Assembly: GCA_024654625.1 (NCBI GenBank)
Contig: JANLHB010000039.1
Location: 1 to 53,835, forward strand
Reading direction: 5' to 3'
Length of the DNA: 53,835 nucleotides
Source: Patescibacteria group bacterium
GTDB taxonomy: Bacteria > Patescibacteriota > Minisyncoccia > GCA-002772825
A model generated the notes under the pieces. It was not told the origin of the DNA, did not search any database, and worked only from the letters and a program-made list of their open reading frames with translations. This document shows, in pieces, positions 8,181-35,361 of this stretch (the stretch's first letter is position 1; each line of letters begins with the position of its first letter). Made by a program: the position numbers and the translations under genes.

Positions 8181-8275
8181 TAAGATAAATATACACTTTA
8201 ATTACGCTTGACGCAAGGTGTAGTTGAGTGCTCTGGTGTTTTGCTTAAGTGAGAAAAAAATAATATAATCAGTAG

Positions 8276-8863: not shown

Positions 8864-8871
8864 AAACTAAA

Positions 8872-8896
8872 TTGTGCAACACTTAGTGTTGCACAA
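8872..8896. repeat. GTGCAACAC-tta-GTGTTGCAC palindrome (REP-like hairpin) downstream of pth
   Basis: Perfect palindrome with the same GTGCA core as the hairpins flanking the RAYT gene. Confidence 0.6.
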
Positions 8897-8981
8897 TTGC
8901 AAAACATAAAATATTGTAAAAATTGTAAAAAAAGCACTCAACGAACCTTAGTAAGGTTCGTTGAGTGCTTTGGGCAATGAT

Positions 8982-9419: not shown

Positions 9420-9552
9420 GACATACCCTCCTTTTTTATATTTTCTTATTTCTTTCGATTTTTATTGATAATATGCTATCTGTACCCATAAAAGCATTTG
9501 TGTCTTAAAAAGTCAAAATAAACAGACTTTTATCACCTAAATTGTTTTGTTT

Positions 9553-9575
9553 TGTGCACCACTCGGTGGTGCACA
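9553..9575. repeat. REP-like palindrome tGTGCACCACTCGGTGGTGCACa upstream of the RAYT gene
   Basis: Palindrome 29 nt upstream of the transposase start. Confidence 0.75.
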
Positions 9576-9603
9576 GTTTAGGTATTTATGATATGATTGA
9601 ATC

Positions 9604-10257
9604 ATGAGGGAATTTACTCCAGCTAGAGGTGAAATATATCATTGTTTTAATCGTGGCACAGAGAAACGAAAAATTTTTCTTTCTAAAAAAGATTATGAAA
9701 GATTTATTGTAAATCTAATACTTTTTAATACAGAAAATACACCGAATAGAAATATCTCTCGTTATAGCCTGGAAGATGCTTATCAGAACATCCCCAGCGA
9801 CCCCCTTGTAAAAATTCATGCTTTTTCACTTTTGCCTAATCATTTTCATTTAATTTTAGAACAGGTTGCAAGCAATGGAATAGCTAGGTTTATGCAAAAA
9901 ATAGAAATGGGTTATGCTCATTATTTCAATAAATTGTATTCAAGAAATGGAAATTTATTTCAAGGTGCTTATAAGATAAAGCACATAGATGATGATTCCT
10001 ATCGATTATATATTTCTTTGTATGTTCATCTAAACGCCCTTGATCTTTTGGGTTCAGAGAAAAATTGGAAAGAAAAGGGGATTAAAAATAAGAATAATGC
10101 TATTAATTTTTTAAGAAATTATAAATGGTCAAGTTTGAGAGAATATTTAGGAGAAGATTCTTTGCCGTTTGTGAGTCGCGATATTTTCGATGAGATTTAT
10201 AGTTCTCCGAAAGAATGGGAAGTTGCTATGAAAGAATGGGCTTCAGGCGAATTTTAG
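9604..10257 (+). CDS. REP-associated tyrosine transposase (RAYT), IS200/IS605-like Y1 HuH transposase
   Basis: HuH motif LLPNHFHLIL and downstream catalytic Tyr region (GYAHYFNKLY); ~200 aa; flanked by inverted GTGCAC palindromes. Confidence 0.8.
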   Translation: MREFTPARGEIYHCFNRGTEKRKIFLSKKDYERFIVNLILFNTENTPNRNISRYSLEDAYQNIPSDPLVKIHAFSLLPNHFHLILEQVASNGIARFMQKIEMGYAHYFNKLYSRNGNLFQGAYKIKHIDDDSYRLYISLYVHLNALDLLGSEKNWKEKGIKNKNNAINFLRNYKWSSLREYLGEDSLPFVSRDIFDEIYSSPKEWEVAMKEWASGEF

Positions 10258-10268
10258 ACTAACTAAAA

Positions 10269-10308
10269 TGTGCACCACCGAGTGGTGCACAGAAGTGGTG
10301 CACAGAAG
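10269..10308. repeat. REP-like palindrome tGTGCACCACCGAGTGGTGCACag plus a tandem partial repeat (aagtggtgcacag x2) downstream of the RAYT
   Basis: Reverse complement of the upstream palindrome (loop ACTCGG vs CCGAGT). Confidence 0.75.
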
Positions 10309-10356
10309 TTTAGTCTTAGAACTGAGCCCTGCCTCCTGTATGCGCAGGCAGGCGTT

Positions 10357-11481
10357 TTACTGTTGTTCTGTTTCGGTGATCGCTTTGCCTTCTTCAGCGT
10401 AGTTTAAGGTCAATTTTTGTTCTTTAGGGTCAAAGAGAGTTATCTGGAAGGCGTATGATTTACCAAGTTCCAGCTTCTTCTTCATCTCTTCCTCTGTACC
10501 GAACTCTGATATGTGGACGAGGCCGGCTACACCCTCTTCAATACTTGCCAGCGCTCCGTGCCTGTTGAATTTGATGATAACACCCTTGATGATGTCACCC
10601 TTCTTGTATTTGTCTTTCGCTTTCTCCCATGGGTTGGGCTTGAGAGCTTTCACCGAGAGTGAGATCTTGCCGTCTTTTATCTCTATGATCTTTGCTTTTA
10701 TCTTCTCTCCCACTTTGAAGAGGTCTCCCGGGTTCTCAATAAGTGTCCAGTCAAGTTCTGAGATGTGAGCTAATCCTTCAAGTCCTTCTTCAATTTTTAT
10801 AAAAATTCCAAAATCAACTACCCCGGTTATGTTTCCTTCTATAATATCGCCTACTTTATATTTTTCCACTATTTCTTTTAGCTCCTCTGACTCTATTTTC
10901 TTCTCTGACAAAATAATTCTCCCTTCTTTCTGATCGCTTCCTATTATAGTGACAGCTATTTTAGTGCCGACAAGTTTTTTAAGTTCTTGAAGAATCTTGT
11001 CTTTATCGCCATCTTCAATTCTCGGATAATGATCAGGTTTTAATTGTGAGGCCGGTAAGAACCCTGGAATTCCATTCCAGTCCATGATAAGACCGCCTTT
11101 ATTGGCGTCTGTAACAGTAAGATTTAAAGCGATGTTGCTTTTCTGAGTTTCTTCAACTTCAGCCCATATTTTTTCTTGTTTAGCTTCTTTTAATGAAAGC
11201 TCTATATAACCGTCTTCATTTTCAATTTCTACCACTTTTGCGCTTATAGAATCGCCGGGTTTTAGGATCTTTATGATATCTCTGGCATTATTGAATTCTC
11301 TGCCATATATTATACCTGTGCCAAAAGGAGTAATATCTACAAAAATGGAAGATTGTTCCTTTCCTATAACCTTTCCTTCGATTAATTCGTTGATTCTGGG
11401 ACGAAGGGCAGGCTCCTTCCTTAGTAGAAGGTCCATTACTCCCATTGATACCTCTTTTGTTGGTTCTGCTAATGTATTCAT
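10357..11481 (-). CDS. rpsA: 30S ribosomal protein S1, 4 S1 domains
   Basis: Repeated S1 OB-fold motifs (GDIIEGNITGVVDFGIFI...GLAHISE; GEKIKAKIIEIK..ISLS). Confidence 0.8.
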   Translation of the reverse strand: MNTLAEPTKEVSMGVMDLLLRKEPALRPRINELIEGKVIGKEQSSIFVDITPFGTGIIYGREFNNARDIIKILKPGDSISAKVVEIENEDGYIELSLKEAKQEKIWAEVEETQKSNIALNLTVTDANKGGLIMDWNGIPGFLPASQLKPDHYPRIEDGDKDKILQELKKLVGTKIAVTIIGSDQKEGRIILSEKKIESEELKEIVEKYKVGDIIEGNITGVVDFGIFIKIEEGLEGLAHISELDWTLIENPGDLFKVGEKIKAKIIEIKDGKISLSVKALKPNPWEKAKDKYKKGDIIKGVIIKFNRHGALASIEEGVAGLVHISEFGTEEEMKKKLELGKSYAFQITLFDPKEQKLTLNYAEEGKAITETEQQ

Positions 11482-12906: not shown

Positions 12907-14562
12907 ATGAACAATAAAGATATTACTTATTTTGCCGAAGCTAATTTTCGTAATAAACACCAGCGTTTCGGTATAAAGCGCGATGATAGAACAAAGCATG
13001 TTTACGTTATAGGAAAGACCGGTATGGGTAAATCTACCATGCTTGAGAATATGGCGGTGCAGGATATTCAAAACGGCGAGGGAATGGCTTTTATAGATCC
13101 TCACGGAGCGACTGCCGAGCTCCTCTTGGATTATGTGCCGGAGGATCGCATAGATGATGTAATCTATTTTGCTCCGTTTGATACAGAGTATCCTATTTCT
13201 TTTAATGTGCTAGAAGATGTCGGTTACGACAAACGTCACTTGGTGGTGGCGGGTCTTATGAGCACATTTGAGAAGATCTGGGTTGACGCATGGTCTGCCA
13301 GAATGTCATACATCTTAAGCAACACGCTTCTCGCTCTCTTAGAATACCCAAACTCAACTTTGATGAGCATCAACAGAATGCTTGCTGATAAGGAGTATAG
13401 AAAGAAGGTTGTAGATAATATCACAGACCCCACGGTCAAATCATTTTGGGTCGATGAGTTTGCCAAATATACAGACAGATATACCCAGGAAGCGACACCG
13501 GCCATCCAAAACAAGATAGGTCAATTTACTTCAAATCCTTTGATAAGAAATATTATCGGACAGCCTAGGACCAGTTTTGATTTACGCAAATTGATGGACG
13601 AGAAAAAGATTATTATTATCAATCTTTCAAAAGGGCGGTTAGGTGAGCAGAATGCGAATCTCTTAGGTAGTATGCTTATCACTAAAATCTATCTTGCCGC
13701 TATGTCTCGCGCCGACGTATCAAGCGAAGAACTTAAAAAGCTTCCTCAATTTTATTTTTATGTTGATGAGTTTCAATCTTTCGCCAATAAATCTTTCGCT
13801 GATATATTATCCGAAGCGAGGAAGTATAAATTGAATTTAACTATTGCGCATCAATATATAGAGCAAATGTCAGAAGAGGTTAACGCTGCGGTGTTCGGAA
13901 ACGTGGGAACGATGATAGTATTTCGTGTCGGAGCTTATGATGCCGATATTTTAGAGAAAGAGTTTGCGCCTGAGTTTATAGCTCAAGATATCGTAAATCT
14001 CGGATTTACTCAGATCTATCTAAGGTTGATGATAAATGGAGTGGGGTCAAGACCTTTTTCCGCTTCCACCTTACCGCCGATTGCGAAGCTGGAGCATTCT
14101 TTTAAAGATAAGATAATTGAAGCTTCTAGGAAGAATTATGCTATTCCGAGAAAGACAGTGGAGGATATGATAAAGAGATGGCACGAAGATGGCGCTCCGA
14201 CTGTCTTGAGTAAACCTGGTTCTATAATGGCTAAGAAAGATGACAAACCTTTTGAGAAAAAGCCAGTATTCGCTTTAAGCGCAGATAAGCGCATCGAGCA
14301 AAGGCTGGATAACAAAAAGCCATATGAAAGAAAGTACGTTAAGCCAACCATCTCTCTAAATGCTTTGAAAGAAAAATCCGGAGAGAATGTTCTCATTAAC
14401 AATAAGAATAGAAGTCATGATCAAAGGAGCCATCCTCAAAAGGCGAGTGCCAATTTAAGCGCCTTAAGAGAAGCCTTAAATGAAATTGCGGCAACCGGCG
14501 AGCCTAAAGAAAAAAATAAAAGCGGAATATTAAAACCTGGACAAAAAATAAAATTTGATTAG
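12907..14562 (+). CDS. FtsK/HerA-superfamily P-loop ATPase, TraD/VirD4 coupling-protein-like, with Lys-rich disordered C-terminal tail
   Basis: Walker A VIGKTGMGKST, Walker B FYFYVDEFQSF, sensor Gln (TIAHQ); no N-terminal TM helices. Confidence 0.5.
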   Translation: MNNKDITYFAEANFRNKHQRFGIKRDDRTKHVYVIGKTGMGKSTMLENMAVQDIQNGEGMAFIDPHGATAELLLDYVPEDRIDDVIYFAPFDTEYPISFNVLEDVGYDKRHLVVAGLMSTFEKIWVDAWSARMSYILSNTLLALLEYPNSTLMSINRMLADKEYRKKVVDNITDPTVKSFWVDEFAKYTDRYTQEATPAIQNKIGQFTSNPLIRNIIGQPRTSFDLRKLMDEKKIIIINLSKGRLGEQNANLLGSMLITKIYLAAMSRADVSSEELKKLPQFYFYVDEFQSFANKSFADILSEARKYKLNLTIAHQYIEQMSEEVNAAVFGNVGTMIVFRVGAYDADILEKEFAPEFIAQDIVNLGFTQIYLRLMINGVGSRPFSASTLPPIAKLEHSFKDKIIEASRKNYAIPRKTVEDMIKRWHEDGAPTVLSKPGSIMAKKDDKPFEKKPVFALSADKRIEQRLDNKKPYERKYVKPTISLNALKEKSGENVLINNKNRSHDQRSHPQKASANLSALREALNEIAATGEPKEKNKSGILKPGQKIKFD

Positions 14563-16170: not shown

Positions 16171-16848
16171 ATGTTACAAGATTGGAGTAATATATTGTCT
16201 ACTTCTTTTCAGGATGTCTGGATCGGAGTTTTGAATTTCGTCCCTAAGCTAATTATTGCTGTTATTATATTCATTATTGGATGGATAATAGCGGTAGTTA
16301 TAGGCAGATTGATATCTCAGCTTATACGATCATTGAAGGTTGACAGAGTGCTTCAGAATATAGGAGCAGAGGAACCTCTTTCAAAAGCAGGATTCCGTCT
16401 TGATTCAGGAGCTTTTATCGGAGGATTGGTAAGATGGTTTATAATCATCGTCTTCTTTGTGGCTATTGCTGATGTATTTGGCCTAAGTCAGGTCAATATC
16501 TTCTTGCAAATGATTCTTGCTTACTTGCCGAATGTAATAGTAGCGGCGATAATACTTGTTATCGCAGCTCTTGTTGCTGATGCTGTAAAGAGGATTGTTG
16601 CAGGATCAGCTAAAGCTGCTGACCTTCCTTCGCCTGAGCTTCTTGGTGGAGTAGCTAAATGGGCTATTTGGATTTTCGCAATTCTTGTTATGCTTTCTCA
16701 GCTGGGAATTGCCGGTCCTTTCGCTCAAACTCTATTTACTGGGTTAGTGGCGATGCTTGCAATTGCAGGCGGTCTTTCTTTCGGTTTGGGAGGAAAGGAT
16801 GCCGCAGCTCGTTTTATAGATAGGCTGAAGAGTGATATAAGTAAATAA
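16171..16848 (+). CDS. Integral membrane protein with repeated conserved-TM-helix motif (MscS-associated TM_helix-like)
   Basis: 4-5 hydrophobic helices, repeated helix-GxG pattern, no soluble domain. Confidence 0.45.
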   Translation: MLQDWSNILSTSFQDVWIGVLNFVPKLIIAVIIFIIGWIIAVVIGRLISQLIRSLKVDRVLQNIGAEEPLSKAGFRLDSGAFIGGLVRWFIIIVFFVAIADVFGLSQVNIFLQMILAYLPNVIVAAIILVIAALVADAVKRIVAGSAKAADLPSPELLGGVAKWAIWIFAILVMLSQLGIAGPFAQTLFTGLVAMLAIAGGLSFGLGGKDAAARFIDRLKSDISK

Positions 16849-16928: not shown

Positions 16929-17767
16929 TTGACTTATAAACCGGCATATATATAATAGTATGGTAGTTATGAGAATACTGATAAATAAAAGTTTCAACAA
17001 GTGGGCAAGGTGATTCCTTCTGTTTATGCTATAACCTTTGCCGCTTGAATAAGCGGCTTTTATTTTTCCGGAACGATAGAACTTTTAAAATTGAATAGCA
17101 GGTAAAAATTAGAATAAATATATAAAAAGTTTATAAATTTCCTAGTAGGAAATAAGAGCATATGGTGGATGCCTTGACTTAAAGAGGCTATGAAGGACGT
17201 GGCTAAGCTACGATAAGCTTCGGGGAGGTGCCAAGCGACCTTTGATCCGGAGATGTCCGAATGGGGAAACCCGTCAGAGTAAAGCTCTGTCAGGCGCCGT
17301 TAAAAGCGCCAGCTAACCCGCTGAAGTGAAACATCTCAGTAAGCGGTGGAAAAGAGAAAAATTTTTATTCCCTAAGTAGCGGCGAGCGAAAAGGGAATAG
17401 CCCAAACCAGTTTTTAACTTTGTTATGAATTGGGGTTGTAAGGCTTTAACGTTCTACTTCTTTTTTAATATTAAATTGCGGAGTAGAAGGAGAGTCATAA
17501 ATTATTTTGTTAGTTGAGTTTGCTGGAAAGCAAAACCATAGAGGGTGATAGTCCCGTAAGCGAAAACAAAATAACTCTTTTGTTATTGACCTTGAGTACC
17601 TCAGGACACGAATGGCCTGGGGGAAGCAGGCAGAACTAACTGCCAAGGCTAAATACTCTTTAAGATCGATAGTGAACAAGTACCGTGAGGGAAAGGCGAA
17701 AAGAACCCCGGTGAGGGGAGTGAAATAGAACCTGAAACCATATGCTTACAAGGAGTCGGAGCGGGTA

Positions 17768-17933
17768 TCACATTGCATGTGATTTGAAAATTCGAAATTC
17801 GAATATCGAAATTCGAAACAATTATTAAAATATAAATTTTAATGTTTAAAACATTAAAATTTATAAAATTAGAATTTGTTTTGTATTTCGGATTTGTGAT
17901 TTCGTGCTTTCGCAATCATGCGTAGCGTGATGC
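17768..17933 (+). other. Intervening sequence (IVS) copy 1 in 23S rRNA, helix-25 region
   Basis: 166-nt AT-rich palindromic element replacing the helix-25 tip; near-identical to the copy at 19181-19346. Confidence 0.7.
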
Positions 17934-19180
17934 CCGTGACGGCGTGCCTATTGAAGAATGAGTCAGCGAGTTTATGCGTATTGCTTAACTAATCCCATAA
18001 GGGAGGAGTTTTAGGGAAACCGAGTGTTAATAGCGCGAACACAGCTTTTTAGTTTTGTTGTCTTGATCAATTCATTGATCTTGATACAGAACTAAGGAGC
18101 TGTATGTAGTACGTATAAGACCCGAAGCCAAGTGAGCTTGCCATGGGCAGGGTGAATTTTGCAGAAATGCAAAAGGAGGCCCGAACCGGTTGGTCGTTCA
18201 ATTCCATCGGATGACCTGTGGTAAGGAGTGAAAAGCTAATCGAACTTGGTAATAGCTGGTTTTCTCCGAAATAGCTTTTGGGCTAGCGTCTTAGTTACCC
18301 TCTGGGGGTAGAGATACTGGAAGGTGTAAACAGGGAGCAATCTCGTTATACCTACCAAACTCCGAATACCAGAGACTAAATCTAAGGCAGTTAGACTATG
18401 GGGGCTAAGCTCCATTAGTCAAAAGGGAAACAGCCCAGATCTCAATCTAAGGTCCCTAAATCTTTGCTAAGTGCACTTAAGGTGGTGAAATTTCTCTAAC
18501 AACGAGGAGGTTGGCTTAGAAGCAGCCATCCTTTAAAGAAAGCGTAACAGCTCACTCGTCAAGAGATATCGCGCCGCAAATACTCGGGGCTAAGCAAGGT
18601 ACCGAAGGTGAGGATTTCAATGTTTACATTGGAATGGTAGGAGAATATTCTGAACTGCGTTGAAGCCGAAGGGGTGACCCACGGTGGAGCGTTTAGAAGA
18701 AAGAATGCTGACACAAGTAACCACAATCCCGGTGAGAGAACCGGGACGCCGAAAGACTAAGGGTTCCTGGGCAATGGTGATCATCCCAGGGTTAGTCGGA
18801 CCTAAGGCGATGACGAAAGTCGGAGTCGATGGACACACGGTTAATATTCCGTGACCCCTTTATTTTTCGATGGAGTGACGGAGGAAATAAATGAGAGCAT
18901 ATTATTGGATTTATGTTTCTTATCTTAAGGAGCGTCTCTTAGGTAAATCCGGGAGACTGATTTAATTCAAGTTCCGAAGATAGGAGAAACTTCTTCCCAC
19001 GGGTTGAGGGATTCTCATGAAGAGCCTTCCTAGAAAAACTTCTAAGATTAAAAATAGAGGGACCGTACCGTAAACCAACACAGGTAGTCAGGTCGAGAAG
19101 ACCAAGGCGAACGGGTGAGATATCTCCAAGGAACTCGGCAAAAAAGCGGCCGTAACTTCGGAATAAGGCCTCCCAGCGCA

Positions 19181-19346
19181 TCACATTGCATGTGATTTGA
19201 AAATTCGAAATTTGAATATTGAAATTCGAAACAATTATTAAAATATAAATTCTAATGTTTTAAACATTAGAATTTATAAAATTAGAATTTGTTTTGTATT
19301 TCGGATTTGTGATTTCGTGCTTTCGCAATCATGCGTAGCGTGATGC
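19181..19346 (+). other. IVS copy 2 in 23S rRNA, around E. coli position 1710-1750, near-identical to copy 1
   Basis: Direct repeat of the 17768-17933 element with ~4 substitutions. Confidence 0.7.
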
Positions 19347-19573
19347 GTTGGGCGCAGCGAAAGTATCCCTGGCGACTGTTTATCAAAAACACAGCTCCCT
19401 GCGAACTCGTAAGAGGATGTATAGGGGGTGACGCCTGACCAATGCGAGAAGGTCAAATACGACTGGTGCTTCGCACCAGAATTTTCAAGTAGCAATCTTC
19501 AATTTTCAAAATTTGGAAATTGTAAATTGAAAATTGGAAATTCTAGCGCGGAGTGCTGAGTTGTATAAGCCCT

Positions 19574-19613
<40 letters not shown>

Positions 19614-20196
19614 TAATTCCTTGTCTGGTAAGTTCAGACGTGCACGAATGGCGTAACGACTGGGGAACTGTCTCGGAGATATGCCCGGTGAAAATGCAAT
19701 GGGGGTGAAGATGCCCTCTACCTGCAGTTAGACGAAAAGACCCCGGAAGCTTTACTATATCTTGATATTGAATTTAGATTTTGGATGCGTAGCATAGGTG
19801 GGAGGCTTTGAAGTTGTCCTTTTGGGGACAATGGAGCCGTCAGTGAAATACCACTCTTTCTTGATCTAAATTCTAACCTGTACGGCAAAAACGTACGGAA
19901 ACAGTATCTGGTGGGTAGTTTAAGTGGGGCGCTTGCCTCCTAAAGAGTAACGGAGGCGCTTATTAAGGTTAGCTAGGCGCGGATGGAAATCGTGCCGATA
20001 GTGTAATGGCAAAAGCTAGCTTGACTGCGAGCGGGACATCGCAAGCAGAGTGGAAACACGAACATAGTGAACCGACCATCCGCATTAGATGCGGTGGGAG
20101 ATTAACGGATAAAAGCTACTCCGGGGATAACAGGCTAGTTCCGCCCAAGAGTTCATATCGACGGCGGAGTTCGGCACCTCGATGTCGGCTCAACTT

Positions 20197-20245
<49 letters not shown>

Positions 20246-20272
20246 AAGTTACGCGAGCTGGGTTCAAACCGT

Positions 20273-20764
20273 CCAGATGCTAAAATCTATTTTTTGGCTT
20301 TTGAGCGGTTTGAATCAAGTTCACGACATTGAGAAGTAGTGTTATAAATTTTTTCGTTTATGAAAAAAGATAGAATCAATCAAATCACGGCGGCCTCTTT
20401 TTAGTAATAATTTGAGGACCAGTCAACTTATATCGGTGAAACCTCTTTCATAAAGAGGCAATACCGAGGGAAGTATTATTGTAGGTTTTGTAAGGGGAGA
20501 CGATGTAGCTTAAAAATCAGAATTTTGCTACGTGATTCGAACACGAGCACTTTCTGATACGGTAAAGCACCGATTGAAAACCGGAAGAATGTGGCAGCCA
20601 CCACCTTCGTCACCCCAGAAAAAATAAGGTCAATCAAAATTGATTGACCCCCTTACAAAACCTATAATAAGTACACCCGTAGAGACTAAATGTTGACTAT
20701 CCAAATTTGATAAAAATTTGGATAAAGTTATAGTCCAATGCATTTGGCGACAAATGATATCATG
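20273..20764 (+). mobile_element. ORF-less group I-type intron in the 23S rRNA peptidyl-transferase region (E. coli position ~2593)
   Basis: 492-nt insertion between ...AACCGU and CGUGAGACAG; the 5' exon ends in U and the insert ends in G, as for group I splice sites. Confidence 0.55.
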
Positions 20765-20818
20765 CGTGAGACAGGTTGGTCTCCTATCTACTGCAGGCGT
20801 TTTGATTCTTGAAGAGAT

Positions 20819-20849
<31 letters not shown>

Positions 20850-21090
20850 TAACCTCTGGTGTACCAGCTGTCCTGCCAAGGGCACTGCTGGGTAGCTATG
20901 TTGGGAAAGGATAACCTCTGAAAGCATCTAAGAGGGAAGCCAACTCTAAGATTAAGAATCTTTAAGACTCCTGAGAGATGATCAGGTTGATAGGCTCTAA
21001 GTGTAAGCGCAGTAATGCGTTTAGCTGAGGAGTACTAATAGTTGTTTTCCTACTAGGAAATTTGTAAATTTATATATATTAAAAAAGAAC

Positions 21091-21212
21091 GCAGAATGTT
21101 GGTGGTTTAACAGGGAGGGTACACCCGATCCCATTCCGAACTCGGAAGTTAAGCTCCCTAGTGGCGATGATACTCCTTATGGGGGAAAGTAGCTGACCGC
21201 CAACATTCTGCG
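21091..21212 (+). rRNA. rrf: 5S rRNA with extended terminal stem
   Basis: Conserved 5S core (cccgatcccattccgaactcggaagttaagc), flanking cgcagaatg/cattctgcg stem, T-run after. Confidence 0.85.
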
Positions 21213-21247
21213 TTTTTTTTGCGCTTATTTTATGTTAATATAGCTTT

Positions 21248-22009
21248 ATGAGTTGGGCTTCGCAAAGACAATTGATTTATCTATTTATTGCAGTTTTATT
21301 ATTTATTGTCATTGCCATAGGCGGTTTCTTTTATTTCAAACCGCAAGTGAATTGTTTTGATGGCAAGAAAAATCAAAATGAAGAAAACATAGATTGCGGA
21401 GGAGTGTGTGGCTCGTGCCTAGGCGATATTAAAGAAATTATCACGCTCTGGAGCAATGTTTTCCCTTTGGGCAACGGTGTATATGAGGTCGCTTCGCTTA
21501 TAAGGAATCCGAATTTTTTTGCGGGTTTACCTGAATTGAAATATACGTTTAAGCTCTATGATGATAATAATATCCTTATTGCCATAAGAGAAGGCAAAAC
21601 TTTTATGAATCCAAATGAAGATTATCTAATCTTTGAAACAGGTATTACTGTAGGTGAAAGGATTCCAAAGCGTGTTTTTATAGAATTTAACAATCTAAAT
21701 TGGAAAAGGATTGAAGAGGAAAGAGTGAAGGTTGCAGTTTCAGAAAAAAGTTTTAATAATTCAATTTTTCCGATACTTGAAGCAAGGATTACGAATAAAA
21801 CATTTTTACCTATTGATGATATTGAGGCGGTAGCCATTCTTTTTGATACGGAAGATAATGCTATCGGCGCGAGTGTCACGAGGATAAGCGCTCTTTCTCC
21901 AGAATCTTCACAGAGAATAACTTTTACTTGGCCGCATCAGTTTAGTATTGAACCGGCAAGCAATAAGATTTTGATACGAAGCAATTTAACCAATGAAGGC
22001 GATATATAA
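21248..22009 (+). CDS. Hypothetical membrane-anchored protein (N-terminal TM, Cys-rich segment)
   Basis: ORF with leaderless-type promoter; stop overlaps the SEDS gene. Confidence 0.5.
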   Translation: MSWASQRQLIYLFIAVLLFIVIAIGGFFYFKPQVNCFDGKKNQNEENIDCGGVCGSCLGDIKEIITLWSNVFPLGNGVYEVASLIRNPNFFAGLPELKYTFKLYDDNNILIAIREGKTFMNPNEDYLIFETGITVGERIPKRVFIEFNNLNWKRIEEERVKVAVSEKSFNNSIFPILEARITNKTFLPIDDIEAVAILFDTEDNAIGASVTRISALSPESSQRITFTWPHQFSIEPASNKILIRSNLTNEGDI

Positions 22010-23120
22010 AAATCATATAGATTGGATTTTATTTCTCGCTATACTGCCTATTTTAGGCGTTGGTCTTGTCACTATGAAGAGTTTTGGCGGAGCTGAAAGC
22101 GACTATTTCTTTACTAGGCAACTTATCTGGATATGTGTAAGTTTTATAGTATTTTTTACTTTTAGTTTCGTGGATTGGCGTTTCTTGAGAAATGGGAAAT
22201 TATTAGCTATTTTTTTTGCTATCTCTTGCTTTGTTCTTGCTGTTTTGTTAATTTTTGCCGCCGCTGTGAAGGGAGCATCAAGTTGGATTAATTTAGGCCT
22301 TTTCTCGGTGGAACCGTCTGACCCTATGAAGCTGCTCCTTATTATGATTTTGGCCAAATATTTTTCTCGTCGCCATATTGAGATTGCAAATATTAAACAT
22401 ATTATTATATCTGGTATTTACGCTTTTGTTCCGTTTGTTCTGATTCTTTTTCAGCCGGATTTTGGTTCGGCAATTATAATTTTCTTTATTTGGCTAGGGA
22501 TGATTCTTGCTTCCGGGGTTTCAAAAAAACATCTTTTTTTGGTTTTTTTTACCGCTACTATTACTTTTGCCACTTTTTGGATGTTTATTTTTGCTCCTTA
22601 TCAGAAGGCGAGGATAAAGTCATTTATAGATCCGTTGGCCGATATCCAAGGGTCAGGATATAATGCTTATCAGTCTATGATTGCCGTCGGTTCCGGGCAG
22701 TTGTTTGGCAAGGGAATTGGCTTTGGCACGCAGAGCCGATTGTCATTTTTGCCTGAGCATCAGACGGATTTTATTTTTGCCGCCTTTGCTGAAGAATGGG
22801 GTTTTATAGGGGTGACTATTTTGTTCTTATTTTTTGGAATTGCCGTATGGAGAATTTTAAAGAATGCCATGCTTGGCGCCTCTAATTTTGAGAGTCTTTT
22901 TGGAATTGGTTTTGCTATATTTTTAATAAGCCATTTTGTTGTTCATATAGGTATGAACATAGGTCTTTTGCCTATAACCGGCACCACTATCCCTTTTTTA
23001 AGTTATGGCGGGTCGCATATGTTTACTGTATTTGCCGGTCTTGGCGTTCTTATGGGGATGAGGCGTTATGGCCGGGTCACCCACCATGAGGATACGTATA
23101 GAGAGTTTTTAGGGCTATGA
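21993..23120 (+). CDS. SEDS-family peptidoglycan glycosyltransferase (FtsW/RodA)
   Basis: 10-TM profile, conserved PDFGSA and EHQTDFIFA..EEWGF motifs. Confidence 0.85.
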   Translation: MKAIYKNHIDWILFLAILPILGVGLVTMKSFGGAESDYFFTRQLIWICVSFIVFFTFSFVDWRFLRNGKLLAIFFAISCFVLAVLLIFAAAVKGASSWINLGLFSVEPSDPMKLLLIMILAKYFSRRHIEIANIKHIIISGIYAFVPFVLILFQPDFGSAIIIFFIWLGMILASGVSKKHLFLVFFTATITFATFWMFIFAPYQKARIKSFIDPLADIQGSGYNAYQSMIAVGSGQLFGKGIGFGTQSRLSFLPEHQTDFIFAAFAEEWGFIGVTILFLFFGIAVWRILKNAMLGASNFESLFGIGFAIFLISHFVVHIGMNIGLLPITGTTIPFLSYGGSHMFTVFAGLGVLMGMRRYGRVTHHEDTYREFLGL

Positions 23121-23225
23121 TTTTTTAAGTGCTGAAGGTGTTATACATCAAGAAGTTGTGTTTAATTGAACGGATTGTGGATAACTATATTTTAATTTTA
23201 TATTTTAATATATAATTAAAATATT

Positions 23226-26200
23226 ATGGATTCGTCTTTTACTTTTTTGAAAAAGGTTAGACAATTTGTCAGACATACAATAGATGCGAATGAAATGAGA
23301 AAGTTGGCTTTTTTAATAAGTGCCGGCTTTTTTATTTCATTAGCCTTATTTGTCCAGGGTGTAAATGCGGATATAACGACGAGTTTATTAGGTTATTGGA
23401 AATTTGATGAGACGACAGGGGTAACTGCTGTTGATAATAGTGGCGGCGGGAATACGGGGACATTATTAAATTCTCCGGTATGGACGACCGGCAAGGTGTC
23501 GGGAGGGCTTTCTTTTGATGGAGTGGACGATGCTGTTCAAATAGCTGATGGAGGCGCCTTCAATTTTGGATCCGGTGATTTTACTGTGTCAGCATGGTTT
23601 AAGACGTCATCAATCCAAACTAAAAATATCATTTCAAAATACATTGGTTCAGGCAGATACGCATTCAATCTCCAGGTTGGCGGCAGCGGTTTGATATCAT
23701 TTATGTCGTCAGACGGAGCTTCAAAACAAATAGGGGCGGCGGATACTCCTTATGAGGACGGAGCTTGGCATCATATTGTCGGCGTTAAGGACTCTGCTCA
23801 ATTGACTTTATATATTGATAATGTACTTAAAGGCAGTACCCCTTTTGGCGGCACCGTTGAAAATTCTAATTATAAAACATATATAGGGGCCAGAGGTTAC
23901 AATAATTTACCGCAGGATAATTATTTCCCCGGATTATTGGATGATGTTCGCATATATAATCGCGCTTTGACTCAATCAGATGTGGCGACGTTGTATGACT
24001 TCGGCGGTTATCAATGCAATGACGATACGGACAATGATTTAGACGGGTTAACGGATTATCCAGATGATTTAGGATGTTCATCTTACCAAGACGATAATGA
24101 AGTTAATTCAGTGTCGCCATCGGGCGACACTACCCCTCCTGTAATCTCAAGTATTCAAGCTGTAAACATTTTTCCAACAACGGCAGATATAACATTCACA
24201 ACCGATGACTTGGCTCATACTGAAATAAATTACGCCGCAGATTCATATTACACATCAAATTCAACTTACAACAATACAGATGTAGATTGGAATAAAGTAA
24301 CGGCGCATTCCATGACTTTAACAGGCCTTACTCCAAATACCGTTTACCATTATCAAATAAAATCTCAGAATAATTCCTCTTTAACCACTACCACATATAC
24401 GGATTATATATTTACAACTTTATCAGATAACACAGCGTCGCCGGTTATACCAGCCGACCCTTCAAAACAGACAGTTGCGCCAGGTACGCCCCTGCCTATT
24501 ATTCCGGGAGGAAAAGGTTTTGGGATAAACACTTATGCCGGAAGCGGCAGGAATCTTGCTGTCCCAAGTACTTCTGTCTATAAAGTGACAACTCTTAATC
24601 CTTCCGGCGCAGGATCACTGAAGGAGTGTGTGGATGCGACAGGGCCAAGGGTGTGCGTTTTTGAAATATCGGGAGTGATAGACATCTCAAGCCTCGGGGC
24701 GTGGGGGTTAAGAGTTAAAAATCCATATATAACGATAGCGGGGCAGACTGCGCCGTCGCCGGGAATAATGCTAAGAGGCGCACCTTTTATAATAGAGACT
24801 CATGATGTTTTAGTTCAGCATATAAGAATAAGGCCAGGCGATACTTTAGGATCAGGATGTGTTATCGGACCGGATAATTGCGATGCCGTGGCCGTAGTGG
24901 ATTTATATAATGAGAATGATGTCTATAATGTGGTCGTTGATCATGCCTCGCTTAGCTGGTCAATGGATGAGATTTTTTCAACATGGTATCCGAATGTTCG
25001 TGATATTACGTTAAGCAATTCAATTTTAAGCGAAGCCTTGCATAACTCTCTTCATCCAAAAGGACCGCATGGCTATGGGTTGATCGTAGGGATTGATTCA
25101 TCTAATATATCAATACTTGGAAATCTTGTAGCTCACAACTATCAGAGGAATCCTCTTCTTAGTATGGGGTCCGAGACGATTGTTGCTAATAACGTTTTTT
25201 ATAACGCCGGCCTGATGAAGACTCACGCTGATGCAAGATCAGGGCTTAAATCAAGTATCGTCGGCAATGTGTATCTTAAAGGCGCGGATTATTATTCGTC
25301 CGTGGCGCCAATTTACATTTATAATTCAGAATCAAGCGCTTCTGTGTATATTTCGGATAATGACGCGCCAGGGGCCACTTCAGATCCTTGGTCAATAGTG
25401 GCCGTAAAACCATCTGATATAATAAACCATGCTTCTATTCCGCCTGTTTGGGTGCCTAGCCTTAGCGTCCTTCCGAGTAATATTGTGAAAGACAATGTGC
25501 TTTTAAATGTAGGCGCACGTCCAGCAGATAGGGATCCAGTAGATATCCGTATCATAAATGAAGTGAAAAATAATACCGGTAATATCATAAACTGTGTTAA
25601 TTCGGATGGATCTGTTCGTTGCCAGAAAAATGCAGGAGGTTGGCCCGTCCTTCTTAAGAATTATCGCAAGTTGATAATTCCTAATAATCCTAATATGGAT
25701 GATGATGGTGACGGGTACACGAATTTGGAAGAATGGCTTCATTCATATGCTACGCAAGTGGAAGGAGTTTCTGTTTTGTATCAATGTTCAGATGGTATGG
25801 ATAATGATAGCGACGGTTTAACAGATTACCCTAACGATCCGGGTTGCGCTTCTGTTTCAGACAATGATGAATACAATGTTCCCGCCGACATCACGCCACC
25901 CGTTATCTCAAACATCTCTGCTTCAGTCACCGCCAACTCTGCCAATATCACTTACGCTACCAATGAACCGGGAGACACCCAGATAGACTACGGTCTCTCC
26001 ACTTCCTATGGTACCGCCACTAATTTAAACACCACCTCTGTTACTTCTCACAGCCAGACTCTAAACAATCTCTCGCCTTCCACCCTCTATCACTACCGAG
26101 TCAAATCCAAAGATACTTCAGGTAATACGTCCATTTCAACCGATAGAATTTTCACTACCGGAGGAATTACTGATGTTACGCCACCTTCAGCCCCAACCAA

Positions 26201-27488
26201 TCTCTCCACCTCTTTCGTCAATCATACTTCTATCACTCTAAACTGGACATCGCCCGGAGACGATGGCTCAGTCGGCACCGCTTTATCATATGACTTAAGA
26301 TACTCTACCTCGCCAATTACTGAATCATCCACGCCAGGCGGGACAAGCTGGTCATCCGCCACCCAAGCAGTAGGCGAACCAACTCCAAAGATTGCCGGCT
26401 CACCAGAGTTCTACACCTCAACCGGTCTAACCGCTTCCACCACCTACTATTTTGCCGTCAAAGCCATAGACGATGCTGGCAACACTTCCATTGTCTCTAA
26501 CATCGCTACAGACACTACTCATTCCTTAACTCTTTCCGTTAATCTTTCGGCTAATAATGTCACCGATCCTTCTTCCGGCAATACTACAGACAGCGGTAAT
26601 ACTTCAACCAGTGGCGGCGGCGGAGGTTCTGTTACTGTATCTTCCGGCGGCGGCGGCGGCGGAGGTGGTGGCGGTAACTATTACGACACCACTCCGCCGG
26701 AAGTTCCTAAGAGTTTCACTTCTCAATCAGCCGAAAATCAGGCCACTCTCGCATGGCAGAACCCACCAGATACAGACTTTGTCCGTGTTGCCATCGTTCG
26801 TTCCACTGCTCCGATTCCAAATCTTTCCACTTTCACTCAAGCTAAGTCACAAGGCACAGTCATCTACGAAGGCACAGATAATGAATACACAGATACCAAT
26901 CTTTTAAACAACACTCCTTACTATTACGCTATCTATTCTTACGACAAGAAGCCAAATTATTCTAATCCGTTCATCCTTCAAGCTGTTCCAAAACAAGGCC
27001 AGACTTCCATAACTGCTCAAACAACTCCTGCCACAATATCTGCCGCTCAATCATCAATTGCCCTTCCAACCCTTACCGGTCCATTTGCATTAGGTTATGA
27101 AAACGATCAAGTCAAACTCCTCCAACAATACTTAGCCAATCCGCCAGCTGGTGGAAAAGATATATATCCGGAAGGGATAACCTCAGGTTATTATGGCGCA
27201 TTAACTCAAAGAGCGGTGGAACGCTTTCAATGCAAATACCAAAACATCTGCTCAGGTTCTCCTTCCTCAACAGGCTATGGCCTAGCAGGCCCAAGCACAA
27301 GATTAAAGATTATGGCAATCCATGGTTCAACTGTTACATCAAGTGGTGGAACTGTGGCTTCAGCTTCCGAAGACGCTTTGAAAGCTCAACTAATGAAACA
27401 AATTGAAGAACTCCAAGCTATCTTACAACAACTCTTGGAACAGTTAGTTCAAGCGTTGGCGCTTCAGTTGGAGGGACTTACTCAGTAG
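23226..27488 (+). CDS. Large secreted multi-domain surface protein
   Basis: Signal or TM at N-terminus; LamG/ConA-like domain; two Cys-DNDxDGLTDYP modules; several fibronectin type III domains; pectate-lyase-like beta-helix; Gly-rich linker; C-terminal peptidoglycan-binding-like domain and coiled coil. Confidence 0.8.
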   Translation: MDSSFTFLKKVRQFVRHTIDANEMRKLAFLISAGFFISLALFVQGVNADITTSLLGYWKFDETTGVTAVDNSGGGNTGTLLNSPVWTTGKVSGGLSFDGVDDAVQIADGGAFNFGSGDFTVSAWFKTSSIQTKNIISKYIGSGRYAFNLQVGGSGLISFMSSDGASKQIGAADTPYEDGAWHHIVGVKDSAQLTLYIDNVLKGSTPFGGTVENSNYKTYIGARGYNNLPQDNYFPGLLDDVRIYNRALTQSDVATLYDFGGYQCNDDTDNDLDGLTDYPDDLGCSSYQDDNEVNSVSPSGDTTPPVISSIQAVNIFPTTADITFTTDDLAHTEINYAADSYYTSNSTYNNTDVDWNKVTAHSMTLTGLTPNTVYHYQIKSQNNSSLTTTTYTDYIFTTLSDNTASPVIPADPSKQTVAPGTPLPIIPGGKGFGINTYAGSGRNLAVPSTSVYKVTTLNPSGAGSLKECVDATGPRVCVFEISGVIDISSLGAWGLRVKNPYITIAGQTAPSPGIMLRGAPFIIETHDVLVQHIRIRPGDTLGSGCVIGPDNCDAVAVVDLYNENDVYNVVVDHASLSWSMDEIFSTWYPNVRDITLSNSILSEALHNSLHPKGPHGYGLIVGIDSSNISILGNLVAHNYQRNPLLSMGSETIVANNVFYNAGLMKTHADARSGLKSSIVGNVYLKGADYYSSVAPIYIYNSESSASVYISDNDAPGATSDPWSIVAVKPSDIINHASIPPVWVPSLSVLPSNIVKDNVLLNVGARPADRDPVDIRIINEVKNNTGNIINCVNSDGSVRCQKNAGGWPVLLKNYRKLIIPNNPNMDDDGDGYTNLEEWLHSYATQVEGVSVLYQCSDGMDNDSDGLTDYPNDPGCASVSDNDEYNVPADITPPVISNISASVTANSANITYATNEPGDTQIDYGLSTSYGTATNLNTTSVTSHSQTLNNLSPSTLYHYRVKSKDTSGNTSISTDRIFTTGGITDVTPPSAPTNLSTSFVNHTSITLNWTSPGDDGSVGTALSYDLRYSTSPITESSTPGGTSWSSATQAVGEPTPKIAGSPEFYTSTGLTASTTYYFAVKAIDDAGNTSIVSNIATDTTHSLTLSVNLSANNVTDPSSGNTTDSGNTSTSGGGGGSVTVSSGGGGGGGGGGNYYDTTPPEVPKSFTSQSAENQATLAWQNPPDTDFVRVAIVRSTAPIPNLSTFTQAKSQGTVIYEGTDNEYTDTNLLNNTPYYYAIYSYDKKPNYSNPFILQAVPKQGQTSITAQTTPATISAAQSSIALPTLTGPFALGYENDQVKLLQQYLANPPAGGKDIYPEGITSGYYGALTQRAVERFQCKYQNICSGSPSSTGYGLAGPSTRLKIMAIHGSTVTSSGGTVASASEDALKAQLMKQIEELQAILQQLLEQLVQALALQLEGLTQ

Positions 27489-27576
27489 AAGAAAAGCGCA
27501 GGATAATTAACTCTACGAACTCATGGGGATGGAGCTTGTTTTGTGCGAACTTGTCTGATAATCTTAAAATATCTTT

Positions 27577-28776
27577 ATGGATAAAAAGATTTTAAATCTG
27601 ATAAAAAAAGAAAAAGCGCGTCAAAAGCGAGTTATAAATTTAATAGCTTCTGAAAATTATGTATCAGAAGATGTTTTAAACGCGCTGGAGTCAGTCTTTG
27701 TGAATAAATATGCTGAAGGGTACCCTGATAAGAGATATTATGGTGGGAATAAAATTGTTGATGAAGTTGAAGCTCTTGCGATAAAAAGAGCTTTAAAATT
27801 ATTTGGACTTGGAGACCTCGCCTCCAAGTGGGGTGTAAACGTCCAAGCTTATTCCGGCAGTCCGGCTAACTTTGCGGTTTACTTCGCGCTTGTCCCTTTG
27901 GGCAACCTGCCTGCCGGCAGGCAAGGTAAGATAATGGGAATGGAACTTTCTTCTGGTGGACATTTGACTCATGGGCACAAGGCATCGTTTACCGGTAAAT
28001 TCTGGAAGCAAGTTCCTTATACCGTAGATAAGAAAACAGAGAGACTGGACTATGACGAGCTTTTAAAGATTGCCAAGAGAGAGAAGCCCGATATTATCGT
28101 GTGCGGTTTTACCGCTTATTCGCGTAAAATTGATTTTAAAAAATTTAGAGAAATCGCGGATTCTTGCGGAGCATATCTTCTGGTGGATATGTCGCATATT
28201 GCCGGGCTTGTGGCAGGAGGTGTTCATCCGTCACCTTTTAAATATGCTGATGTGGTGACAACTACTACTCATAAAACTTTGCGAGGTCCGAGATCGGCAA
28301 TAATTTTCTCACGTAAAAAATTATCGGATAAAATTGATAAGGCGATTTTCCCGGGGCTTCAGGGTGGACCGCATGTGAATCAGATTGCATCTGTAGCTGT
28401 CTGTCTTAAGGAAGCCGATTCTCCAGTTTTTAAGAAATATGCCAAGCAGACTCTGAAGAATGCAAAAGTGCTTGCCGATGAATTAAAGAAAAAAGGTTTT
28501 AGAATTATCTCAGGCGGTACGGATAATCATCTTTTGCTTGTTGATGTGTGGAGGGATGGTAAGGGGATAAGCGGAGTGGAGGCCAGCGATAGACTGGAGA
28601 AAGAAGGAATTATAGTGAATAAAAATACTATCCCTTTTGACACTCGGTCACCCGCTAACCCGTCAGGGATTCGCCTAGGGACTGCGGCTGAAACCACTCG
28701 CGGGGCGAAAGAGGGTGATATGAAAAAAATTGCGGAAAAAATCGCCCGTATCTTATCTGTTGACAAAAAGCGATAA
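27577..28776 (+). CDS. glyA: Serine hydroxymethyltransferase
   Basis: PLP-lysine region TTTTHKTLRGPR, HLTHGH..; full length; contains a 7-aa in-frame palindrome-encoded insertion (NLPAGRQ). Confidence 0.95.
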   Translation: MDKKILNLIKKEKARQKRVINLIASENYVSEDVLNALESVFVNKYAEGYPDKRYYGGNKIVDEVEALAIKRALKLFGLGDLASKWGVNVQAYSGSPANFAVYFALVPLGNLPAGRQGKIMGMELSSGGHLTHGHKASFTGKFWKQVPYTVDKKTERLDYDELLKIAKREKPDIIVCGFTAYSRKIDFKKFREIADSCGAYLLVDMSHIAGLVAGGVHPSPFKYADVVTTTTHKTLRGPRSAIIFSRKKLSDKIDKAIFPGLQGGPHVNQIASVAVCLKEADSPVFKKYAKQTLKNAKVLADELKKKGFRIISGGTDNHLLLVDVWRDGKGISGVEASDRLEKEGIIVNKNTIPFDTRSPANPSGIRLGTAAETTRGAKEGDMKKIAEKIARILSVDKKR

Positions 28777-28843
28777 ATAAAACATTCTTTCCTTAGTAAA
28801 TAAGACAGCAACTTAACATAAACTTTAGAAAAGGAGGTTTGCG

Positions 28844-29050: not shown

Positions 29051-29060
29051 TCTTACGCTC

Positions 29061-29100: not shown

Positions 29101-29129
29101 TTTTAGTTAAATAGGATAAACTGAGGTTT

Positions 29130-33545: not shown

Positions 33546-35032
33546 TATATAATGTATTAGAGCCTATAAGAAGTATAGGTCGTCCTTTAATAATTTAAAA
33601 ATCCACTAAATAACAAGTCCAAAAAAACAATGATAGTCCGCCTAGGGCGGATTAATTCGGGCAATCAGCTTTCAGCTGAGCCCTCATTGAATATTATTCT
33701 TTCTTTTGTTCCGTTCTATTCAACCGAACATTCTTCGGAATGTTTTAGGTTTTTTTAAGAGTTTGATCCTAGTCCCGATTTTACTCGCATCTTTGATGCG
33801 ATTGTAAAATCGAGGATTCTCGAAAAATATATCCCGATTTCATCGGGAGTTATTTTTCGGAACTCAGGATATGTGATTTATTCATATATTTTGTTTGAGA
33901 ATCAATACTTCTTTTTTAAGAGTTTGATCCTAGCTCAGGATGAACGCTGGCGGCGTGGATAAGGCATGCAAGTCAAACGGGCACCTTCGGGTGCCAGTGG
34001 CAGACGAGGTAGTAACACGTAGGAACGTGCCTCTAAGTTGGGCATAATCCGCCGAAAGGCGGACTAATTCCCAATAGTCCCTTCGGGGTAAAGTCCGCTT
34101 CGGCGGACGCTTAGAGATCGGCCTGCGAGCTATCAGCTTGTTGGTAAGGTAATGGCTTACCAAGGCGATGACGGCTAGGGGAGGTGAGAGCCTGACCCCC
34201 ACCGATGGCACTGAGACACGGGCCATACACCTACGGGTGGCCGCAGTCGAGAATATTCCACAATGGGCGAAAGCCTGATGGAGCGACGCCGCGTGCAGGA
34301 TGAAGTCTTTCGGGATGTAAACTGCTTTTATGAGGGAGAAATTACGATGATGTTACCTCAAGAATAAGGGGCTGCTAAACTCGTGCCAGCAGCAGCGGTA
34401 ATACGAGTGCCCCGAGCGTTATCCGAAATTATTGGGCGTAAAGGGTTTGTAGGCGGCTTTGTTAGTCTCTTGTTAAAGCTTCCGGCTTAACCGGAAAAGT
34501 GCAAGAGAAACGGCAAATCTAGAGGATGCGAGAGGTCTATGGAACTCATGGTGTAGGGGTGAAATCCGTTGATATCATGGGGAACACCAAAAGCGAAGGC
34601 AATAGACTGGCGCACTCCTGACGCTGAAAAACGAAAGCGTGGGTAGCGAATGGGATTAGATACCCCAGTAGTCCACGCCCTAAACGATCTTCTCTAGCTT
34701 TTTGGAGTATCGACCCTCCGGGAGGCGAAGCTAACGCGTTAAGAGAAGCGCCTGGGAAGTACGGTCGCAAGACTAAAACTCAAAGGAATAGACGGGGACT
34801 TGCACAAGCGGTGGATCATGCGGTTTAATTCGATGATAAACGAAGAACCTTACCAGGGTTTGAAACCCAAGCGAAGTCCGCCAGAAACGGCGGACGTCTC
34901 ACAAGGACGGTTGGGCAGGTGATGCATGGCTGTCGTCAGTTCGTGGTTTGAATTGTTCCCTTAAGTGGGGTAACGAACGCAACCCCCGTTGCCTGTTATA
35001 TGTTTCAGGCGAGACTGCCCCTCACCAAACTC

Positions 35033-35122
35033 GGAAGAGTTTGGAAATCCGAAGCACGAAGCACGAAAAACGAAACAAAAAGTTTCGAATTTCGAATTTC
35101 GGATTTAACCAATCTTATTGGT
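35033..35122 (+). other. Palindromic IVS in 16S (around E. coli position 1130-1140)
   Basis: ccctcaccaaac...[cgaa/ttcg-rich insert]...ggtttggtgaggg extends a helix by ~90 nt. Confidence 0.6.
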
Positions 35123-35361
35123 TTGGTGAGGGGAGGAAGGCGGGGATGACGCCAAGTCAGCATGTCCCTTTGACACCCTGGGCTACACGCATGATACAAT
35201 GGTCGGTACAATGGGTCGCTAAGCGGTAACGCGGAGCCAATCCCATCAAAGCCGATCCCAGTCCGGATTGAGGTCTGCAACTCGACCTCATGAAGTTGGA
35301 ATCGCTAGTAATCGCAGGTCAGCTATACTGCGGTGAATACGTTCTCAAGTCTTGTACTCAC

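Follow-up and report, generated by a model that had tools for sequence, protein, structure and literature searches.

Two nearly identical palindromic elements cap two different helices of a single 23S rRNA gene in the 53.8-kb stretch of DNA analysed here (the window). They belong to a widespread family of hairpins with fixed ends that occupies helix tips of rRNA and RNase P RNA in CPR bacteria, and copying from tip to tip within a genome either keeps its members alike or creates new ones. A literature search on the motif, on expansion segments in Patescibacteria, and on intervening sequences (IVSs) in helix 63 found no description of the element; such a family is apparently undescribed. The reading we favour, as probable rather than settled, is of paralogous hairpin copies specific to the stable RNAs of Paceibacteria and other CPR, homogenised by gene conversion, with a basal duplex that would act as a cleavage signal.

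The window contains a 23S rRNA gene at 17142..21058 on the + strand (Rfam RF02541, 2330 bits; 3917 nt against a model of 2925 positions), a 5S gene at 21098-21205, and a 16S gene that starts at 33912 and is not linked to the 23S gene (both Rfam). The 16S intron has Rfam matches to group II D1-D4. Proteins encoded in the window are of the housekeeping kind (FtsZ, FtsA, HisRS, S1, SecDF, GyrA, SHMT, and FtsW), and the relatives of its FtsW all come from Parcubacteria/Paceibacteria MAGs, which makes the host a CPR bacterium of the Paceibacteria. Exact-protein look-ups returned no match on record for the upstream proteins at 12907-14562 and 16171-16848, the S1-domain protein at 10357-11481, or the LAGLIDADG ORF at 35708-36139. 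A second, independently assembled MAG of this organism, GCA_024653605.1, has a contig identical to window positions 20809-32009.

Relative to E. coli (blastn against rrlH), the 23S gene contains six insertions: 17405-17507, at Ec270-290; 17763-17935, at Ec540-553, the helix 25 tip; 18038-18112, at Ec651-664; 19170-19371, at Ec1704-1770, helix 63; a heptad-repeat hairpin insert at 19457..19566 (+), at Ec1854-1889, the helix 68 tip; and 20274-20764, at Ec2594, which is group-I-like. Copy A of the element (17767..17933, +) caps helix 25 between Ec540 and Ec553, and copy B (19180..19346, +) caps helix 63 between Ec1704 and Ec1770. Alignment, blastn placement, and folds bear out the claim, made in a first-pass annotation, of near-identical palindromic copies at two 23S helices. 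Its helix 25 site stands, and its second site, a helix near E. coli 1710-1750, is refined to the helix 63 tip (Ec1704-1770). Near-identity likewise holds, at 97%; the length and difference count are corrected from 166 nt and about four to 167 nt each and five.

Each copy carries a 5' and a 3' end module: in copy A, ATCACATTGCATGTGAT at 17767..17783 (+; nhmmer E = 1e-5) and ATCATGCGTAGCGTGAT at 17915..17931 (+; nhmmer E = 8e-5); in copy B, the segments at 19180..19196 and 19328..19344 (both +). Between the modules, the 5' arm of copy A holds 4.4 tandem copies of AAATTCG (17788..17818, +; TRF), with a period-7 z of 5.4. Profile HMMs of the end modules match copies A and B alone in the window. 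Further copies, which the first-pass annotation had proposed to look for, do not occur elsewhere in these 53.8 kb, where no third copy of either the element or its end modules is present. An Rfam scan of the element with E values up to 10 gave no intron model, and only sub-threshold miRNA-precursor or unrelated models; identity as a group I or group II intron was ruled out for want of any intron covariance-model match.

Each copy is predicted to fold as a single rod, long and imperfect, that prolongs its host helix, with energies of -80.2 (A) and -76.8 (B) kcal/mol and z scores of -8.8 and -7.9 against shuffles. The helix 25 stem, GCGGGU/GCCCGU, runs on into the copy A rod. The folding check suggested at first pass gave rods continuous with their host helices and z of about -8 to -9. 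The differences between A and B comprise one compensatory pair (U-A to C-G), two changes from C-G to U.G, and one apical-loop base. None of the five breaks a pair (P = 0.005 for five random substitutions), and the C-G to U.G changes would be mismatches if read as DNA. This suggests that the hairpin is maintained as RNA, a point to which the family as a whole returns below.

Two other inserts in the window share the architecture of the element. The helix 68 insert had been noted as a further AT-rich insert at 19490-19556; it is real and extends over 19457-19566, with arrays of AATTTTC and TTGGAAA and a period-7 z of 5.2. It is built as the element is, and is counted outside the family because its end sequences differ. 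The 16S insert (about 35018..35133, +; arrays CGAAGCA and TTTCGAA; period-7 z = 5.7) sits at h40 in our reading of the alignment. Its existence is confirmed, and its supposed kinship with the 23S element stands for heptamer and build and falls for the end modules: AAATTCG/TTTCGAA is common to both, and a 16-nt exact match joins them (E = 0.002). Copies A and B have all that defines the family (two modules, a 7-nt-periodic hairpin, a stable-RNA helix tip, and sense orientation), whereas the helix 68 and 16S inserts have only the periodicity and the architecture. The window's helix 68, 16S, Ec270, and Ec651 inserts were considered as members and rejected, since the end-module HMMs miss them.

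The wider family was sought with the exact 17-mer ATCACATTGCATGTGAT as key, in a metagenome scan that returned at least 120 stretches, of which 80 loci were examined. About half of the 17-mer matches in the listed loci are genuine elements, with a 3' module 70-183 nt downstream, and 47 distinct members from relatives and metagenomes are present among the matches listed. In these 47 the unit reads [G C]-ATCACATTGCATGTGAT-[G Y], a variable interior, and then [R Y]-3' module-[G Y]. The 3' module is ATC(G/A)(C/T)G(C/T)G(T/C)AG(C/T)G(T/C)GAT, with the consensus ATCGCGCGTAGCGTGAT, of which ATCATGCGTAGCGTGAT in copy A is a transition variant. Each end module spans 17 nt, or 21 nt with the flanking GC included. 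Blastn against E. coli left 35 of the 17-mer matches without an rRNA flank; four of these carry a 3'-module match, and the other 31, bare palindromes that lack the 3' module, were discarded as chance. The match in L132 was a false 3'-module match, and L117 and L156 hold the same element, in RNase P RNA.

Conservation is much stronger at the ends of the element than in the adjoining helices of the host rRNA. Invariance of the 5' module is in part a matter of ascertainment, because this module served as the search key; the 3' module, which did not, is nearly invariant, although the 23S cores of its hosts share only 71-87% identity with that of the window. All but 2 of its 799 cells hold the consensus or a transition variant. 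Each module is a small palindrome, able to form its own hairpin of 7-9 bp. The two modules also pair with each other, in a duplex with two A.C mismatches around a 4-bp box, so that they are terminal inverted repeats as well as direct repeats of a palindrome.

At least eight 23S sites are occupied, along with 16S h6 and the P15-17 arm of RNase P RNA. Helix 68 is the commonest site (13 of the 47 members), followed by Ec270-300 (7) and by helices 45, 63, and 25 (6 each); Ec130-178 and about Ec2782 have two members each, and about Ec1500 and 16S h6 one each. The remaining three lack an E. coli rRNA flank: the copy in the RNase P RNA arm, whose host matches RF00010 with 104.7 bits; L112, a copy at the end of its contig whose flanks are helix 68-like; and L099, a genuine element whose surrounding gene context is not assignable. 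By its placement the element is part of the rRNA transcription unit and is transcribed within the pre-23S RNA, in sense and at helix apices.

Fixed ends around a variable interior are also what a DNA-level, non-autonomous transposon of the MITE/PATE or REP type would show, mobilised by a transposase encoded elsewhere. Its end modules would be recognised as DNA hairpins or as a dimer site, and its restriction to stable RNA genes would follow from palindrome targeting or from selection. Each module is a pseudo-palindrome of 17-21 bp with a hairpin of its own and resembles the ends of IS200/IS605 elements and REPs, which carry subterminal hairpins. Several copies per genome, sporadic presence, and the same modules in hosts with such divergent 23S cores fit this picture. 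Mitochondrial double-hairpin elements (DHEs) provide a precedent for small mobile hairpins in a large-subunit rRNA gene (PMC10085805).

Several observations nevertheless leave the transposon rather unlikely. No target-site duplication is evident: the flanks are the complementary host stem, and only a GC dinucleotide is constant. Intergenic DNA offers a far larger neutral target, yet none of the 47 members is a confirmed copy outside RNA genes, and no copies were found in the rest of the window or in the roughly 1 Mb of flanking loci from relatives. Orientation is sense in all 46 members with a known host (23S, 16S, or RNase P RNA), although co-orientation of rRNA genes with replication could bias a single-strand transposase in the same way. 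The near-exclusive transitions in the 3' module keep G.U pairing, an RNA signature. None of the window ORFs scanned is a transposase. There is likewise no sign of a phage vector, as a scan of viral contigs with both end modules gave no matches; an exact 20-mer from the element also had none in the GTDB species genomes, a collection that lacks the window's own region. At the same time, the modules may act at the DNA level, as a site bound by a dimeric protein.

The interior of the element is a fast-evolving, variable hairpin whose arms are built of tandem 7-nt repeats. Seven-nt periodicity exceeds z = 3 in 35 of 44 interiors (mean z = 4.5), no other period is prominent, and core 23S has none. 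The longest heptamer arrays in the window (at least 3.4 copies) lie in rRNA inserts; TRF found three shorter, AT-only arrays elsewhere in it. The 5' arm is richer in purines than the 3' arm (fractions of 0.62 and 0.39). The heptamer varies between genomes and is alike among the inserts of one genome, even where these have other end modules; the helix 25 and helix 63 inserts of L030 are a further case.

Structure prediction treats these sequences as RNA hairpins. RNA energies favour the rod over the local end hairpins by about 10 kcal/mol, and in 45 of the 47 members the sense strand folds more stably as RNA than its antisense (by 13.6 kcal/mol on average). Covariation in the rod reaches a score attained by none of 500 shuffles, with slid controls far lower. 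The local end hairpins receive covariation support too, so the rod may not be the sole relevant fold. Selection on the hairpin is purifying, with G.U pairs tolerated.

Presence of the element among relatives is sporadic. The 23S-5S-hyp-ftsW synteny is conserved, and it yielded about 20 complete and many partial Paceibacteria 23S genes. Long inserts occur in helix 25 in 5 of about 19 of these, in helix 63 in 8 of about 24, and in helix 68 in 3 of about 24; in most relatives the empty helix 25, 63, and 68 sites are short hairpins with tetraloop caps. The end sequences of the window copies are seen again at helix 68 (L026, L023, and L056) and at Ec270 (L011), and variant end forms occur at helix 63 (L044, L010, L030, L011, and L078). 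Separately, the helix 63 insert of L006 is 448 nt long and contains a 92-aa ORF with no Pfam match.

Such hairpins might be retained in the mature ribosome as bacterial expansion segments, with the modules or heptad arms perhaps docking a lineage-specific protein; the likeness between segments would then arise from slippage and conversion ('cryptic simplicity'). The occupied sites are peripheral helix tips, and several match the sites of eukaryotic expansion segments: the helix 25 and helix 63 sites of the window are the positions of ES7 and ES27. The similar heptamers among one genome's inserts, even with different end modules, and the compensatory change that maintains the hairpin accord with this possibility, as do the mature structures drawn for CPR RNase P RNAs with 'large extensions of helices' (PMC8172020). 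CPR ribosomes have reduced forms of helix 63, helix 9, and h6 (PMC9297842), and the rods might make up for the lost mass.

Other considerations make retention doubtful, and we hold it only as a minority view. In bacteria, RNase III normally cuts near-perfect dsRNA of such length (50-75 bp). The tip of helix 68, which is filled more often than any other site (13 of 47 members), presumably lies near the subunit interface and the E site, where a rod of 100-150 nt seems hard to fit. Sporadic presence among close relatives argues against a needed function. Finally, CPR rRNA insertions are mostly predicted introns according to the passages of PMC9297842 that cite Brown 2015.

Copies at different sites of one genome resemble each other far more closely than do copies that share a site but come from different genomes. 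In pairwise alignments of 25 inserts of relatives, the best four of 300 all join different sites within one genome: helix 25 and helix 63 in the window; Ec270 and helix 63 in L010; helix 25 and helix 68 in L023; and helix 25 and helix 63 in L030. Interior identity between different sites of the same contig has a median of 0.78 (12 pairs) and a maximum of 1.00, against 0.50 between contigs. A single 23S gene, in L116, holds five copies. Moreover, L085 and L100 are 99.78% identical over 5.1 kb, with 11 differences. Six of these lie together in a 14-nt patch, through which the helix 45 copy of L100 becomes identical to its Ec270 copy. The patch is consistent with gene conversion, or with repeat collapse in assembly.

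Intragenomic copying between helix tips is therefore well supported; it is recurrent and characterises the family in general. The proposal of the first-pass annotation, that one element was recently duplicated or moved between rRNA helices, is likewise well supported by same-genome likeness and by the patch, and the pattern recurs in at least ten other, independently assembled contigs. The helix 25 and helix 63 pair in the window is one recent instance, at 3% divergence.

An assembly duplication, which the first-pass annotation had named as part of what would refute it, or a chimera would also produce two such copies. Repeats are known to disturb short-read assemblies, and the contig of MAG GCA_024653605.1 breaks within this very 23S gene, at window position 20809. 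That break, however, falls at neither copy. The copies differ at five positions, including a compensatory pair; each has the rRNA flanks proper to its own site, and the two rods prolong different host helices. Genes with several copies are found again in many unrelated assemblies; this recurrence, in at least ten other contigs, together with the conversion-like patch in L085/L100, makes an artefact very unlikely, to the point where we give it almost no weight.

Gene conversion accounts for the likeness of sites already occupied, not for the first colonisation of an empty tip. One conceivable route is spread at the RNA level, in which an excised hairpin is ligated into the cleaved loop of another stable RNA and then fixed through reverse transcription and recombination. 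Only stable RNAs that are abundant serve as hosts (23S, 16S, and RNase P RNA), the insertions are always at hairpin apices and always sense, and no sequence-specific DNA target is apparent, all as this route would have it. Against it, no reverse transcriptase or RNA ligase was seen here, and gene conversion together with selection can explain much of the pattern. We know of no precedent for such spread by non-intron elements in bacteria, and regard it as improbable.

In the proposed explanation of conversion-homogenised paralogous copies, ectopic gene conversion between copies would keep them alike. The conserved duplex that the two modules form at the foot of the rod, rich in G.U pairs, would be a signal at the RNA level, most likely cut by a double-strand-specific endoribonuclease of the RNase III type. 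If cleavage does occur at the basal duplex, the hairpins would be removed as IVSs and the 23S rRNA fragmented, so that the mature molecule would consist of three or more pieces. Such excision and fragmentation are plausible by analogy with known IVSs. In the part of PMC9297842 that cites Brown et al. 2015, most CPR rRNA insertions are predicted introns from comparison of genes with transcripts; short ORF-less CPR rRNA insertions have been guessed to be RNase III IVSs (PMC11270868). An RNase III signature motif had no match in the 1.8 Mb of fetched loci, an uninformative sample for this purpose.

The 23S IVSs of Salmonella, Yersinia, Campylobacter, Leptospira, Coxiella, and Rhizobiales are excised by RNase III without religation. 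The present family resembles them as extra hairpins on peripheral 23S helices, with long stems that continue the host helix; in its use of the classical sites helix 9, helix 25, and helix 45; and in a sporadic distribution that suggests horizontal or intragenomic spread. Copy A sits at a documented IVS site (helix 25), and copy B at one, helix 63, that is not documented in the literature searched; to our knowledge the classical IVS sites do not include helix 63, helix 68, Ec270-300, about Ec1500, or about Ec2782. Unlike those IVSs, one sequence family here occupies at least eight 23S sites as well as 16S and RNase P RNA, with up to five copies per gene; its two palindromic end modules are strictly conserved, and its arms consist of heptad repeats. 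Excision is established for the classical IVSs and is a putative step in the present family.

Closest in host and location are the short CPR rRNA 'insertion sequences' surveyed by Tsurumaki et al. 2024 (PMC11270868): less than 200 bp, without an ORF, not group I or II introns, at recurrent sites, and guessed to be IVSs. Host group and recurrent sites are common to both. That survey (PMC11270868) deals with neither sequence families, end motifs, heptad periodicity, within-genome paralogy, nor presence in RNase P RNA.

Among mobile hairpins, the family is like the mitochondrial DHEs of chytrids and Schizosaccharomyces, and like yeast mitochondrial GC clusters, in being small, conserved, and putatively mobile, and in that these too can sit in an rRNA gene. 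DHEs are 26-79 nt long. They are mostly intergenic and GC-rich and have no long central hairpin; the family is confined to stable RNAs and is AT-rich inside. In S. octosporus, one of five DHEs lies in rnl (PMC10085805). The MITE/REP repeats (Correia/nemis, RPE, ERIC, and REP/BIME with RAYT) are also non-coding palindromes with conserved ends and hairpin transcripts, but they are genome-wide, in both orientations, and often have target-site duplications, none of which is seen in the family. Neisseria nemis RNAs are RNase III substrates, and Rickettsia RPEs insert inside genes.

ES7L (helix 25) and ES27L (helix 63) share with the family the same helices, simple-repeat arms, and motifs common to the segments of one genome; Hancock and Dover are said to have described, in 1988, co-evolving, 'cryptically simple' expansion-segment sequence. 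These segments, however, stay in the mature ribosome, are of ancient origin at every site, and have no conserved end modules, whereas the family is sporadic and consists of near-identical units.

Together, these results show concretely what some of the short, uncharacterised insertions reported for 82% of CPR 23S genes (PMC11270868) are. One sequence family can repeatedly colonise rRNA helix tips and an RNase P RNA arm. For practical work, the repeats break MAG assemblies within rRNA genes, and annotation tools and primers meet rRNA and RNase P RNA genes that the elements have lengthened and disguised. For the bacteria themselves, the conserved end duplex is a testable candidate processing signal. 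The family also offers a tractable bacterial model for the origin, spread, and homogeneity of expansion and intervening segments in rRNA, with a direct parallel to ES7 and ES27. More tentatively, it may be a selfish or domesticated element of a new kind, confined to stable RNAs, whose twin 21-nt palindromic modules would be recognised by a dedicated dimeric nuclease or recombinase or by an RNA cut-and-ligate system. If so, that system would excise the hairpin from RNA and copy it into other apical loops of rRNA and RNase P RNA, and would constitute a bacterial route for the birth and spread of 'expansion segments'.

The hairpin family occupies several sites within a single gene, and reaches stable RNAs other than rRNA. 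In metagenome contig Ga0210050_1005150 (locus L116), one 23S gene (reverse strand, 7504-10417) holds the element in five paralogous copies: at E. coli position 270; at helix 25; near position 1500; at helix 63; and at helix 68. Helix 45 and E. coli 922-952 of this gene hold additional inserts, which are unclassified. Another member of the family replaces the tip of the P15-P17 arm in a type-A RNase P RNA gene of bacterial type (8498-8602 of locus L117; locus L156 is the same). Finally, a bona fide member is found on the minus strand of locus L099 (1213-1325), with a tRNA gene about 400 nt downstream of it. The surroundings of this copy match no Rfam family, and some 120 nt of contig remain on its upstream side.

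Other inserts interrupt the window's 23S gene. Two of them, at 17405-17507 (E. coli 270-290) and 18038-18112 (E. coli 651-664), show neither the 7-nt periodicity nor the end modules of the hairpin family, and therefore appear to be of a different kind. A third, the 491-nt ORF-less insert at 20274-20764 (E. coli ~2593/2594), resembles a group I intron: it matches RF00028 with 41.1 bits (E = 4e-9), under the gathering score of 50. Many relatives lack this insert, with an exact junction corresponding to 20273|20765.

Two other loci show further oddities in 23S sequence. In the relative L006, the helix 63 insert (4930-5377) measures 448 nt, and a 92-aa ORF inside it has no match in Pfam. Locus L094 has a tRNA-like match of 62 bits (1835-1905, minus strand) inside a stretch that is annotated as a single uninterrupted match to 23S; either a 23S insertion there contains a tRNA gene, or the 23S gene is split. 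As a separate observation, the 3' end of the window's own tRNA-Val (1085-1110) recurs as a near-exact 26-nt repeat at 1192-1217, 107 nt downstream of tRNA-Val; the repeat may be left over from an integration or a duplication.

An intron of about 845 nt (35362-36205) splits the window's 16S gene after the equivalent of E. coli C1399; it matches Rfam group-II D1-D4 with 37.3 bits. Within it, a 143-aa ORF (35708-36139) encodes a single-domain LAGLIDADG_1 endonuclease. The intron fits the "16IS9" class of introns described in CPR bacteria (PMC11270868). The 3' exon restarts at about 36206, and the 16S ends near 36330.

That 3' end (36290-36335) reads GGAUUAUAUUCAUUA in place of GGAUCACCUCCUUA, so the window's 16S lacks the anti-Shine-Dalgarno CCUCC. 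Among the 35 window ORFs whose start regions were examined, only four have a Shine-Dalgarno-like motif, and many have a TATAAT box directly 5' of the start codon. Boxes placed in this way suggest leaderless mRNAs, or mRNAs with very short leaders.
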